Assembly: GCA_951406725.2 (NCBI GenBank)
Contig: OX597814.1
Location: 85,994,001-86,058,000 of the forward strand
DNA: 64,000 nucleotides
Reading direction: 5' to 3'
From: Octopus vulgaris
Taxonomy: Eukaryota
The stretch's first letter is position 1; each line of letters begins with the position of its first letter. The position numbers and the translations under genes are program-made. Below are positions 15,596-61,548 of the stretch, one piece after another. The notes beneath the pieces were generated by a model that worked only from the letters and a program-made list of their open reading frames with translations, searched no databases and had not been told where the DNA came from.

Positions 15596-15633
15596 CAGTT
15601 GAAAAGGTCTCAAAATGACCGAAACCGGTACTG
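15596..15633 (+). ncRNA. Minimal type I hammerhead ribozyme, U3:A8 core variant (PLE 3' fragment ~15460-15687)
   Basis: cag TTGAAAA GGTC tcaaaat GACC GAAAC CG GTA ctg. Stems I and II intact, palindromic stem III ACCGGT, GUA triplet. Confidence 0.75.
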
Positions 15634-15727
15634 AAAGATTCACTATAAAAGTATCTTAGCATTTTCTATTTTTGACTTGTTTTTTCATATATATATATAT
15701 ATATATATATATATATATATATATATA

Positions 15728-16500
15728 AATCAGTGAAAGAACACAACAAGCGGAAACCATCAAAGCACAACATGCGGGAAAATGGATGATAACATGACAA
15801 ACGGCAAACAGGACAAAAACAAGATACACGGATCGTTCGCACCCGATAACCTCTTCAGTTTGTGTTCGGAATGTCTCTGAAGTGTCTCTCCCCTTATCTC
15901 TGATGCTTCTCAAATCCGGCGGGGGCCAGGGATTTAAGCAAAAAGCATTAAGCCTATGGGAAAGGCAAACGAATGTGTACAAGAACGAAAACAGGAACTG
16001 AAACAAAAACAAGGAAGCTAGAATTATACACGACTATACAATAGAAAGGAAAAAATCTTTTGTACATATATGAATATAAATAAATAAATAATAGAGTATT
16101 TCGACTATCAAACGAACATAACGTTATGAAATAGAATATACACATACAATTGAAAAACGCCTTTCAGTTATACAACAAAAGGAAAATAATTGTACAAATG
16201 CAGCCAGACGAGCGTGGTATGCTGGCGCAAAGGAAAATGGACCGGGTGGCAGGACAGGTGGACAGGACCAGCCTATATATTTATGTATATATAGTCAATT
16301 CAAAGAACAAACAATATAAAAAAAGAGAAGAGAGAAAAAAGAGAAAAAAACGAACGTGAGGCAGTGCACAAGAATTATATTAGTTTGACGCTCGGTGAAA
16401 GGAGAGAGTTTTTAACGTTTCGAGCAAGGCTCTTCGTCGGAAAGAAGAAAGGGAAAAGTCCAAATAAAAGGAAAATCCCCAATGCTTCACGTGTGATTAC
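15728..16500 (-). mobile_element. PLE-like terminal fragments, including a hammerhead motif at 16409-16443
   Basis: Purine-rich on the plus strand and abuts (TA)n. Minus strand: ttt CCGACGA A GAGC ctt GCTC GAAACGTT aaa, a close relative of the 9246 and 25789 motifs. Confidence 0.55.
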
Positions 16501-16989
16501 ATTTCTGTGGATTACGTTAACTTTTAATTCATTCGGAGTATGTTTATGTATATATGTATGTGTGTGTCCTTCTTTTGTGTTTCTCCCCTCCACCGCTTGA
16601 CAATATGTGTTGGTCTGTTTACATCCCTGTAACTTACCTTTTAGTAAAAGGGGGCGATGGAATAAGTCCAAGACTTAAAATAAGCACCAGGGTTCATTTA
16701 TGCGACTAAATCTTTCAAGACGGTTCCCCAGCAGAGCTACAACAAATAAATAACAACGGATAATTTTTTTTTAATATATAACAGCATTTAACATTCATTA
16801 TGATAATTACGTCGAAATATCAACATTATAACAATATCCAGTCAGCAACATTATGTCAGCAAAGAAGAAAAAACAATTACAATACTAACATTATTACAAT
16901 AATAGCTAACAATCCTATACACAAGCTGTTCTGAACCCAGTACACAGCTCATAGTTAATTTATAGACCTCGAAAGGATAAAAGACAAAG

Positions 16990-17491
16990 TTTATGGACCC
17001 CTTTGATTCCTATTTTACTCAGGTGGACCCACATACTAATTCAATGTTTAAAAATTCAATTAAATATAATTAGGAATTGTATAAAAAGAATTAAGATATT
17101 TTGTGAAATGTGCAAGTATAACATATATTGTTATATTTAGGAATGGTCATATTTTTTGCTAATTAACCACATGCACTTGGTCTTCATTCCAGCTTTATTA
17201 TTATTATTATTATTATTATTATTATTATCATTATTATTATTATTATTATTATTATTATTATTATTATTATTATTATTATTATTATTATTATTATTTTAGT
17301 GTATAAAATAACGATGATAATAAAGCTGAAGTGAAGATCAAATATAGCAATATCTGCTTCAACACACGATTTCACATCAGGAATCTTCCAACACAAATAC
17401 ATAAACGTAATAGTTTATTACTATTAAATTTTCAGAAAATCTTATTGTACCCCCGTCCCAAGGGTCATATGGACGCCCTTTGAGAATAACA
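16990..17491. mobile_element. Decayed hAT (Charlie-like) MITE with an internal (ATT)n insertion
   Basis: Repeated tatggacccc/ggaccc subterminal motifs and a right end ...tttgagaataacag resembling ttgagaaccactg. Left TIR and TSD not seen. Confidence 0.4.
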
Positions 17492-57270: not shown

Positions 57271-60244
57271 TTCTGAGGTGTATGAAATGAAATATCAACC
57301 GCTGTCGTGTTCTTTTGTCTCGTCTAAACCAGTCATGGCCAAACTTCGGCCTACGGGGTTTTCTGAATGGTGCACCTAACGAAAACTTACTTTAAATTGT
57401 CTATAGTGGAGCTCCTGCTTAAACTAAACCCTTCCCCCAAATTGCTGGCTTTGTGCCAAAATAGGAAGCGATTATTTCATCAAACACTATTTAAATACAG
57501 ATAATGCCGCTTTGTCTCATGGGAAAACCCTGGTTAGATTTTATTGCTATAACTTGCAAACCAAATTTGATACTTCAACACCACTTCTCAAATCTGTAAA
57601 TAAAATATAACAAAATTTTTAAAATTATATTAATACTGCTGCATAAAAGATTTTTTTAAATATCCAATTATATAATATTTTTAAACTAGAATATTTTAAT
57701 GGTTTCTAATAAAACTTTAAATTATTCATAGTTAATCATGCGTGTAGTATTAAACAAACATATATAGCAGCGTATATGAAATGCATACGTATACCTTTCT
57801 TTCTCTCTTATCCCCACCTCTCTCTCTCTCTTTCTCTCTCTCTCTCTCTCTCTCTCTCTCTCTCTCTCTCTCTCTCCCTCTCTTTCGATGTTTCTCTATG
57901 CATTCTTCCTCGATACACAAACTCACATGTATACAGCAATATAATGTGGATATTTATACGTACGTGTGTGCACCCGTGAATGTGTATGTACGTGTGCGTG
58001 GGTGTTTATATCTGAGTGTGTACGTTTATTTGTGTATAGGCATATTTGTAGGTATGTATGTGCATACGTTTGGTGTATGTATATATATGTGCGAATGTGT
58101 GTGTATAGATAGATAGATAGATAGATAGATAGATAGATAGATAGATAGATAGATAGATAGATAGATAGATGCATACATACGTACAAGCATACAGGTACAC
58201 TCACACACACTCATACACATTCATATGTGTGTGAGTGTGTATATATACATATATGCATATATACATATGCATATATGTTATATATATATATATATATATA
58301 TTTATATGCATATGTATATATGCATAAGTATATATATATGTGAATTCGGGTGTGTGCGTATACATCCAAAATTATAATGGCATGCTAAAAAATTTATGTA
58401 GAACTACATAGGTACATATATGCACGTATTGTATACGTTTGATTATTGTCTGTGTTTGTGTGTGTCTGTCTGTCTGTTTTCTGTCTGTCTGTCTGTCTGT
58501 ATGTATGTATGTATGTATGTATGTATGTATGTATGTATGTATGTATGTATGTATGTATGTATGTATGTATTGATGGATGGATGGGTGTGTCTGTTATGTG
58601 TGTATACCCTTTGTACATGAACACGGAGACCTACTGAACGAGTTGATCAGATATCAAACAGCTCGTTCTTAAGCTGCAGTTTAATTAATTAGAGAACACC
58701 CAAGCTATCTTCATTATGTGCATGAACTCACACAAACATGTTATAGACACACACACGACACGCACCACAAATAGCGCACACACATGTATGTGTATGTGTG
58801 TATGTGTGAGTATATATATATATATATATATATATATATATATATATATATATATATAGCTATCTATACCTACATACTTACATATATCTATCTCTCTCTC
58901 TCTCTTTCTCTGTATATTTACACACACACACACACACACAAATATATATATATATATATATATATATATATACAGGTATATATATATGCATATTGTATAT
59001 TCATATGTATATGTATATAGATACATGCATACATATATATATAAATGTATATGTATATATATATATATATAAACATGCATCAATATATATACATAGGTAT
59101 ATATATACATATATATATTTATATATATACATGCATACACATGTATATATATTTATGCATGTACCCATATACATACATACGCATATATATATATATATAT
59201 ATATATATATATACACATATAAACATATGTATGTGTATACATATATATATATATATATATATTGAGCAGTTATTATATGTCTTTAACTCATATGTATACG
59301 AATATATGCGTGTATGTAGGCTTCTGTGTATATGTATGGTGTTAAATATGCATGTATTATCTTAATCTTTCTTATATAGCATGCGTTAATAAAAAAGAGT
59401 AAAAACTATTACACTGAACAGAATAGTTTTTGGGTTTTTTTTTTTTGCTTTTTTTTCCTACTTTTTAAACAGTGAAAGAGTCTTTCTGAATATTGGTTGC
59501 TTATTGTTCTTTAAAACAGTATATATTAATGTATAAATTCAGGTGTATATAAGGACACATACATATTGCGCGCACGCACACACACACACACACACACACA
59601 CACACACACACACACACACACACACACATACATATATATATATATATATATATATATATATATATATATACATTATGTACAAGCATACATCGATTTGGTA
59701 GTCTTTTGCTTTGGCTTTGGCGTACGAGGATTGAACTGTAAATCAACAGAAAAGTTTTACTTCGAATCTTTGTATTTCTTACCAGACACAGAAAGCAATT
59801 CTCGTCTGCTAGACTACCGGCAGAGACGGTATGCTTATAGTTATGAAGCATTATAGAGGACCACCACAGTACCATTTGGATGAACTTAGAGCAGAAAATG
59901 ATGAAATCTGTATCACATATATATATATATATATATATATATATATATATATATATATATATATATATATATATATATATATATATATATATGTATATAT
60001 TATATGTGTGTGTATGTGTATATTTATATATATATATATATATGTGTGTGTGTGTGTGTGTGTGTGACTGTGTGTATGTGTGTGTATGTGTAAGCATACC
60101 TGTATATACACATATATACATATATATTTAAACACACATATATATGCATGCATAAATACAAGTACACGCACGTGCATATGTGTGTGTGTGTGTGTGTGTG
60201 TGTGTGTGTGTGTGTGTGTGTGTGTGTGTGTGTGTGTGTGTATG

Positions 60245-60940
60245 CCTGACTTTAGAATAGACTGTCTATTCGTCTATGAAACCTAAAGTAATGTGAAGTT
60301 GAGTTAACCTGTTATTAACTGCTTACAGTGCAACCTAACTGAAGTATGTGTATGCTTATTAAACGTTTCGGCTTGCTTGCGTTCGTCAGACAGTGCTTTA
60401 CCCGAGTTCCGTTTGGCCGCATATAGTTCATTAGAAGTTGATTTCTCTTTTGTTTTCAGGTAGGGTTAGGTGGAGCTATGTGAAATGTTAATTTGTTGTT
60501 GTGATAATTAGGTGAGGTGTACGTTGACTTGAGAAATAATTGACTCGAAATTGAGGGATAGAGGAAGATAGGAGGAAATTCTGTATTTGTTGGGGATGGG
60601 TTAATAGGAAATTATTGTGAGAGATTTAATTTGGTTTGATATAGCAATTTGATTATTGTTGGGGGCTCAGCTAATCGTAGAAACTGATATGTAAGACAGG
60701 TACGTTAAAATCAAACATGTCAAATTTATGTTACGATATTCTTTGTATAGAAAGTTGTTTTTTGTTGCGTTTTAGGATTCCCAAAAGAATGTTTATAGAT
60801 GAAACAGTCACCTACCACACGCCAGACTGCTCTTTAGTTGATGTTCATCTTGATCAAATGTTAAACCGCGTGTTTTGCAGGGGTTGGATTCAAAGATTAG
60901 GTTCCCATAAGCATTGGAGTTATCTATTATGTTTTTAGTG
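60245..60940 (-). mobile_element. Decayed PLE-like 3' region with hammerhead-like motif at ~60360-60390
   Basis: Minus strand CTGACGA ACGC aagcaa GCC GAAACGTT. Upstream sequence is only weakly GIY-YIG-like. Confidence 0.4.
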
Positions 60941-61202
60941 TAGTTATTTGAGTTAATATTATATAATAGTAGAGAAATGCAAGTATTCATGCACACATAC
61001 ATTCATACATAAATATACATATATGTATGTGTATATGTATATATATATATATATATATATATATGCATATATGTATAGATATATGCACATATATATATAT
61101 ATATATATATATATATATATATATATATATATACATGTATACATACATATATATATGTGTGTATATATCTTATATATATATATATATATATATATATATA
61201 TA

Positions 61203-61548
61203 TATATTGTATAAAAGATCGTGAATAAGGCCAAAACAATGCGAAGTAAATACAAGGTAAATCACAAGAAAACAAATATGTGAATGAATGTAGACTTACC
61301 TTGTATTCAATATTTCGGGTTATGACCCCATTTTCAAGAAATTGACGAATGCTGCCGATGTGCGTGTGCAACATTCGGCCACACACGCACACCGGCAAAA
61401 TTCCTCAATTTCTTGAAAATGGGGTCATAACCCCGAAATATTGAATACAAGGTAAGTCTACATTCATTCACATATTTGTTTTCTTGTAATTTTCCTTGCT
61501 TCTATTTCGCATTGTCTTGGCCTTATTCACGATCTTTTATACAATATA
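61203..61548. mobile_element. Fold-back element (~165-bp inverted arms) beside (TA)n, each arm carrying a U3:A8 hammerhead
   Basis: Arms ~61203-61368 and ~61382-61548. Plus strand 61410-61445: ttc TTGAAAA T GGGG tcataa CCCC GAAAT ATT gaa. Mirror copy on the minus strand at 61306-61340. Confidence 0.85.

Follow-up and report, generated by a model that had tools for sequence, protein, structure and literature searches.

A 64,000-nucleotide stretch of the Octopus vulgaris genome (GenBank assembly GCA_951406725.2, contig OX597814.1, positions 85,994,001 to 86,058,000; here called the window) carries minimal type I hammerhead ribozyme motifs in which the C3:G8 pair of the core is replaced by U3:A8. 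The motifs lie in the terminal repeats (pLTRs) of Penelope-like elements (PLEs), and U3:A8 is the family-level state in four PLE lineages of this genome, called A, B, C and D. From sequence comparison, we consider it likely that the U3:A8 core keeps the 3-8 pair for a selected, weak self-cleavage that would be assisted by dimer formation or by protein. An original prediction made from the window alone had listed six such motifs, assigned them to at least four element families with unrelated flanks, and proposed a radiation of U3:A8 ribozymes in which both positions had changed together in several lineages.

All six motifs were found in the window sequence where they had been reported, the minus-strand positions being the low core ends (U3 is at 36772 and 22003). 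Family A is represented by a 3' stub at 15456..15694 (+) that sits in (TA)n and consists of the end of the 3' untranslated region, the pLTR hammerhead and a tail of ~55 nt. Over 239 nt it is 96% identical to a pLTR from a full-length element that encodes reverse transcriptase (RT) and a GIY-YIG endonuclease. The hammerhead (15596..15633, +; U3=15599, A8=15604, A17=15630) has the layout CAG / UUGAAAA / GGUC-GACC / GAA / ACCGGU / A17 / CUG, and the 5' strand of its stem I is made up by a splice-site-like pyrimidine/U-rich tract ending in CAG (15560-15598). The family B stub (61207..61581, ends approximate) consists of two pLTR halves inverted back-to-back. Its plus-strand hammerhead (61410..61445; U17=61442) reads UUC / UUGAAAA + U / GGGG-CCCC / GAA / AUAU / U17 / GAA and is followed by a splice-site-like GTAAGT (61446-61460). 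The inverted copy (61306..61340, -), the mirror at 61337, has lost one stem II C and is no independent case, being part of the same insertion as the motif at 61413. The family C stub (36614..36781, -) is 97% identical to family copies, and its hammerhead-like motif (36738..36774, -; U3=36772, core UUGAAAA) has a C10.1-A11.1 mismatch and a proximal stem I of 2 bp. This copy (36766) is decayed, with A15.1 gone and GAAT in place of GAAA. The sister subfamily group C' is present as a stub at 21858..22013 (-) with a motif at 22005-21969 (-; U3=22003) that has the core UUGACAA and a C10.1-C11.1 mismatch. In family D, an inverted pair of pLTR halves (55609..56020, ends approximate) holds a hammerhead at 55894..55932 (+) with U3, C4, A8 and C17=55928 and the layout GAAC / UCGACAA + A / GACAG-CUGUC / GAA / AUGU / C17 / GUUC. 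It is a decayed copy, having ATGT where the family has the palindromic ATAT. A second, inverted D hammerhead (55653..55691, -; U3=55687) had escaped the original prediction.

As the copies at 36766 and 21997 belong to one lineage and the 61337 mirror belongs to the 61413 insertion, the six motifs represent four lineages, A, B, C/C' and D. The claim of four families was thus upheld, and that of unrelated flanks held among A, B, C and D but not between 36766 and 21997, which are 81-85% identical over 136-179 nt. A three-way junction with core box, GAAA, NUH triplet and stems I and II was present in the family states of A, B and D and in the window copies of A and B. Stem III is palindromic in these families (ACCGGU in A, AUAU in B and D, AGCGCU in C and C'), and the stem II closing pair is G10.1-C11.1 in A, B and D, C-A in C and C-C in C'. 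The cleavage triplets are GUA (A), AUU (B) and AUC (family D), with GUC in the window copy of D. All window copies are stubs truncated at the 5' end; they lie in (TA)n or similar repeats and are probably inert, and among the window open reading frames (ORFs) no long one was tied to the six listed motifs. The CAG of stem I in A was considered as a splice acceptor and the GTAAGT after B as a splice donor; four RNA data sets, all of them contigs that lack molecule ends, showed no joint at the motif, a result that speaks neither for nor against splicing or cleavage.

The genome analysed comprises 2.8 Gb in 227 contigs, and the GC content of the window is 33%. A search of the kind suggested in the original prediction, in which a minimal type I descriptor left N3 and N8 unconstrained and asked for a palindromic stem III, gave five matches in the window vs. 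0.03 per shuffle (30 shuffles). The copies at 36766, 21997 and 55898 were overlooked by this descriptor because their stem III or 10.1-11.1 pair is broken. A second descriptor, in which the whole 7-nt core was free, was run on 80 stretches of 10 kb, 20 of them sampled from the flanks of the window and 60 from other contigs. It gave 11 matches, 10 having G5 and A9 and nine having a Watson-Crick 3:8 pair, whereas shuffles gave 2.2 matches and none with G5 and A9. With Rfam models, the family A motif scored 22.9 bits against Hammerhead_HH9 (E 0.00058 in a 111-nt stretch), below the gathering threshold of 52, and no Rfam hammerhead model matched the window copy of D at E<=10. The window is very densely filled throughout with microsatellites, of the types (TA)n, (CA)n, (TATG)n and (GATA)n, which give rise to hundreds of spurious Rfam microRNA (miRNA) matches; in the whole-window scan the best 150 of 778 rows were all microsatellite-driven miRNA matches.

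Family states of the 3:8 pair were hand-counted from the listed rows of core-free patterns, and all counts per 100 given here are among the matches listed. Exact-pattern copy numbers underestimate old families. Family A had 1,892 exact-pattern copies with A8 in 99/100; U3 was present in all rows from 30 loci, and only five non-U3 copies were found genome-wide. Family C (675 copies) was U:A in 99/100. The 168 core-free copies of B gave 84 U:A, nine U-G, three C:G, one C-A and three other per 100, and the 70 core-free copies of D gave 63 U:A, one C:G, one U-G and five other, with C4 in 39/70 and U4 in 29/70; one D-type copy reads CUGAAGA. The states of C' (144 copies) were 50 U:A, 41 U-G and nine other per 100, and those of A2, a sister family of A (306 copies, with an extra U before N3), were 41 U:A and 59 U-G per 100. 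These data place U3:A8 as the family-level state in A, B, C and D, which thus show the pair-preserving 3:8 variation known from published variants. U3:A8 and C3:G8 families coexist in this genome. The C3:G8 families E (6,501 copies; C:G in 92/100, C4 in 84/100) and H (3,896 copies; C:G in 93/100) have higher exact-pattern counts than A, B, C and D, and the term radiation was therefore an overstatement. Single changes at position 3 or 8 occur in E and H, but U3:A8 was found in 0/200 of their listed matches, indicating that U3:A8 is a family consensus, as originally argued, and not the result of post-insertion decay. A further family, G, is G:C in 94/100; one of its subfamilies has 1,280 exact copies.

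A permutation over families gave Watson-Crick pairing at 3:8 in 14/15 families (p=0.0002), in 8/9 multi-copy families (p=0.008) and in 6/6 collapsed lineages (p=0.016). These p values are indicative only because the families were hand-picked, six came from one or two loci, relatives are not independent, and the scores used for C (U:A) and A2 (U-G) predate the finding of their mixed states. Within B, G8 was kept by 3/4 C3 copies vs. 9/93 U3 copies (p=0.0055), and in G the N7 position varies while G3 and C8 mostly hold. Among the families and subfamilies seen, none with C-A, A-A or G-A at 3:8 was amplified, such pairs being restricted to scattered copies. The covariation is not strict, however. 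U3-G8 makes up the shares of C' and A2 given above and a 9/100 subset of B. The G8 and A8 copies of C' differ at linked flank positions (40 fetched from the 100 listed, 20 of each), indicating that U3-G8 itself was amplified. The claim that 3 and 8 change together therefore stood for the U3:A8 state of A to D and failed for the U3-G8 groups, and an independent occurrence of U3 and A8 among copies, which the original prediction had named as evidence against itself, was in part observed. The pattern fits a rule in which 3:8 is paired with wobble allowed, U-G serving as a bridge.

That the motifs are PLE minimal hammerheads, another claim of the original prediction, was borne out by their pLTR context and by linkage to RT and GIY-YIG sequences, the link being strong for A, C and D and weaker for B. 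An intact family A ORF of 784 aa matched RVT_1 (E 2.9e-8) and GIY-YIG (E 1.5e-4, slightly short of the Pfam cut-off). Many near-identical intact copies were found, indicating that family A is young. Its elements form head-to-tail arrays with one motif per ~4.4 kb, and inverted pairs are also frequent. Family A thus has the features of endonuclease-bearing (EN+) PLEs, namely RT followed by a C-terminal GIY-YIG domain, pLTRs, tandem and inverted insertions, and (TA)n targets. The linker before its endonuclease, CGRPNCGIC, is of the CX2-5CxxC type described as a Neptune/Nematis-type feature (Craig 2021); the RT tree held no reference PLEs. For family C, a same-strand GIY-YIG was located upstream in 6/30 longer copies. 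In longer copies of D, tblastn placed the end of the GIY-YIG ~220 nt upstream of the hammerhead. An iterated endonuclease profile matched 24/34 D loci, a partly circular result because the profile had absorbed D sequences, and the tblastn matches provide independent support. RT-thumb and GIY-YIG-like remnants were found upstream in 2/30 loci of B, and tblastn with the family A protein gave no match in B loci; B therefore has the weakest PLE link. No linked ORF was seen in 30 loci of E. The same held for the first 30 loci of G, and a same-strand GIY-YIG lay ~950 nt upstream in 3/30 loci of a second set. An endonuclease beside L264 was considered as that of G and rejected, as it belongs to family J. 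We also considered whether A to D might be retrozymes that lack long terminal repeats (non-LTR retrozymes). We rejected this because the copies occur dispersed, as stubs truncated at the 5' end or as inverted pairs, and are continuous with PLE ORFs.

In both A and A2, ORF1 overlaps the RT-endonuclease ORF in the -1 frame, and T TTT TTA is found in both overlaps (L354:4540(-), L104:1246(-), L312:8246(-)), which suggests a predicted programmed frameshift; a frameshifted ORF1 has been noted for some PLEs (Craig 2021).

Chance folds, or decay of canonical C3:G8 copies after insertion, are a very improbable source of the motifs. Both changes are transitions, three window copies are individually decayed, and CpG decay of TTGACGA could account for some of the TTGACAA copies in C'. 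Nevertheless, U3:A8 is common to hundreds to thousands of copies, is absent from the listed matches of E and H, and has almost no counterpart in shuffled sequence, and the family counts refute this explanation for A, B, C and D. The copy at 21997 was also considered as mere CpG decay of TTGACGA and rejected, as its flanks place it in the A8 subfamily. A single ancient origin of U3:A8 in a PLE ancestor, or exchange of pLTRs between elements, would make the families non-independent. A, A2, C and family J, another relative of A, form one protein neighbourhood (45-64% identity) in which all are U3, as would be expected from a single origin. Over the RT-thumb and endonuclease blocks, A and C are 47% identical, A-B and A-D are 23% identical, and B and D are 18% identical. 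Approximately unbiased (AU) tests rejected a single clade of the six U3 families (A, J, A2, C, D and B) with p-AU values of 0.0033 (LG+G4) and 0.0101 (LG+C20), obtained on an unrooted tree of 10 rows and 249 columns with four long branches and 4/7 inner branches open. Note that peptides of broken copies were read through the breaks and that E, having no linked ORF, was left out. In addition, B keeps its own C3:G8 and U3-G8 copies, D has the CUGAAGA copy, and no similarity among A, B, C and D was detectable in their stems or flanks. We regard a single origin as improbable, and these sequence relationships suggest that U3:A8 likely arose more than once. The claim of changes in several lineages is thereby supported, with the qualification that 36766 and 21997 count as one.

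In the mechanism that we favor, the short palindromic stem III would be unable to close in a monomer. Two motifs of one tandem transcript would pair via stem III, or the element's protein would chaperone the fold, and the folded motif would cut the precursor RNA at H17. Selection during retrotransposition would keep 3 and 8 paired, either Watson-Crick or wobble, and C3:G8 would have been converted to U3:A8 by two transitions via a tolerated U3-G8, more than once. A cofold of two 15585-15645 copies (family A) formed the dimer helix through stem III and came out 7.5 kcal/mol lower than two monomers. Several observations weigh against this mechanism, in addition to the reservations given with the permutation and the tree. 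When the window copies of B and D were cofolded, no stem III dimer formed. All of 30 C copies, picked by upstream sequence, extend beyond H17 and A copies, picked on the motif, end ~55 nt beyond it, indicating that inserted copies stem from RNA uncut at the 3' motif. The U3-G8 subfamilies amplified well, and thus Watson-Crick restoration was not required. In an AT-rich genome, C-to-U and G-to-A are generally the most frequent kinds of substitution. Other conserved features, too, are broken in successful families: C has C10.1-A11.1 and C' has C10.1-C11.1, D and E have C4, a further group, E', has U6, and A2 has an extra U before N3 together with a 2-bp stem II.

These last departures are the reason that we give some credence, although well short of an even chance, to relaxed constraint, in which cutting is no longer needed and AT-biased change lets C3 drift to U and G8 to A independently, the fold being kept as a protein-binding, promoter or RT-positioning element. 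The U3-G8 subfamilies, the broken 10.1-11.1 pair in a family as young and abundant as C, the C4 and U6 cores of large families, and the origin of copies from uncut RNA would all follow. In the Anolis PLE PAc, hammerhead mutants did not lose in vitro insertion, so that cleavage was dispensable there, and no RNA ends were reported at the site (PMC11167929); Naiad PLEs multiply without canonical hammerheads (PMC8557442). However, drift should yield C3-A8 as often as U3-G8, and no amplified C3-A8 was seen. Moreover, the G3:C8 family requires two transversions, and lineages that are only 18-30% identical in protein have kept G5, A9, G12-A14, A15.1-U16.1 and the stem III palindrome.

Other hammerhead cores were found in the window and in the sampled stretches. 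Three C3:G8 motifs of the window, at 25793(+), 16440(-) and 9277(-), were absent from the original prediction and serve as comparison cases. They are a family E hammerhead (25789..25823, +; the copy reads CUGACGA, the family state being CCGACGA), an E-like hammerhead with the core CCGACGA (16411..16443, -; C3, C4, G8) and an E' hammerhead-like motif with the core CUGUCGA (9246..9281, -; C3:G8, U6). A broken GIY-YIG remnant of the E' element (9932..10324, -) lies ~650 nt upstream of the E' motif and matched the family A protein (tblastn E 1.5e-7). Elsewhere, E' cores (CUGUNGA, U at 6) are also downstream of a GIY-YIG remnant (L031, L161, L313), and E forms ~230-nt elements (L217-L246) whose 5' ends lie ~75-100 nt before the motif. 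A2, ~60% identical to A in protein, comprises two young subfamilies, one U3-G8 and one U3:A8 (L104:2700-2760(-), L312, L317), and in L104 an A2 element is directly downstream of an A element. Family J, likewise a PLE ~60% identical to A in protein, combines the core UUGACAA with a GAAA box that has an additional A (L307:5830-5860(+), plus an inverted copy). Family F consists of two tandem units 362 nt apart (L038:4828, 5190), both carrying a type I motif with U3:A8 (UUGAUAA, ACAUGU), and may be a non-LTR retrozyme.

Family G, which is linked to PLEs, has a minimal hammerhead whose core is G3:C8 (GUGAACA+G), with a long stem I, a 5-bp stem II and an AAUAUU stem III. Several of the 80 sampled stretches contain it (L195:4129(-), L359-L388), N7 varies among older copies, and there is no copy in the window. 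A branch-point-like CTAAC plus TTTCTYAG precedes the motif (L359-L388:1480-1512), and many copies start just after it. We put forward, tentatively and as less likely than not, that this one genome holds a natural 3:8 allelic series (C:G, U-G, U:A and G:C), each member amplified and all cleaving with the help of the element's protein. The series would take in the G3:C8 family and C4 cores in more than 6,500 copies. If so, the working PLE core would be NYGWNNA with a paired N3:N8, the U-G wobble would be an evolutionary bridge, and G3:C8, an engineered rescue mutant in the literature found, would be a natural high-copy ribozyme. Our literature search, which covered few subscription journals, returned no octopus or cephalopod PLE hammerhead and no natural G3:C8 or C4 PLE family.

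The U3:A8 PLE hammerhead variant itself is already described in other animals (2011, 2014). Natural U3/A8 covariation active in vitro was reported by Perreault et al. 2011 (PMC3088659), together with a viroid U4C variant that had reduced in vitro activity and kept infectivity. The variants of that paper were rare single examples, whereas here they have become the fixed state of retroelement families with copy numbers in the hundreds to thousands. The closest known system is the Schistosoma mansoni Cercyon PLE, whose minimal hammerheads have U3-A8, gave ~1,300 matches and had been overlooked by the standard descriptor (PMC4209133). Our finding that CUGANGA-only searches miss U3:A8 motifs, as the original prediction had stated, repeats a point already printed there. 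The supplement rows of that paper include UUGAUAAA and PLE-linked UUGAAAAA cores and a Saccoglossus UUGAAGAA (U3-G8), and the Schistosoma motif gave no monomer cleavage and low dimer cleavage. Like Cercyon as presented in that source, the octopus elements have type I minimal folds in pLTRs, a palindromic stem III, mostly truncated copies, inverted pairs 100-700 bp apart and, in B and D, an extra nucleotide after A9. Unlike in Cercyon, a single genome here has U3:A8 in four distantly related lineages, the extra nucleotide is missing from A, the 10.1-11.1 pair is broken in C, and D has C4 in addition; no G3:C8 or C4 was found among the 56 supplement alignment rows compared. Small dimeric PLE hammerhead variants with a short stem III and dimer cleavage were described by Lunse et al. 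2017, according to the review PMC6765202.

The hammerhead of PAc, the Anolis Poseidon PLE, depends on its 3-8 pair and needs the element's protein in order to cleave, and its C3G/G8C double mutant had partly rescued cleavage (Frangieh et al. 2024, PMC11167929). As in the account given there, the octopus elements have a pLTR hammerhead near the ORF start, a tail beyond the motif and AT-rich targets. They differ in that PAc is C3:G8 and its G3:C8 form was engineered, and in that family A has a CX-CxxC linker and a separate ORF1. To the known cases the octopus thus adds four lineages in one further genome, showing that CUGANGA-only searches undercount PLE hammerheads, and its young C:G, U-G, U:A and G:C families together with intact A elements allow a test of whether PLE hammerheads need cutting or only folding.

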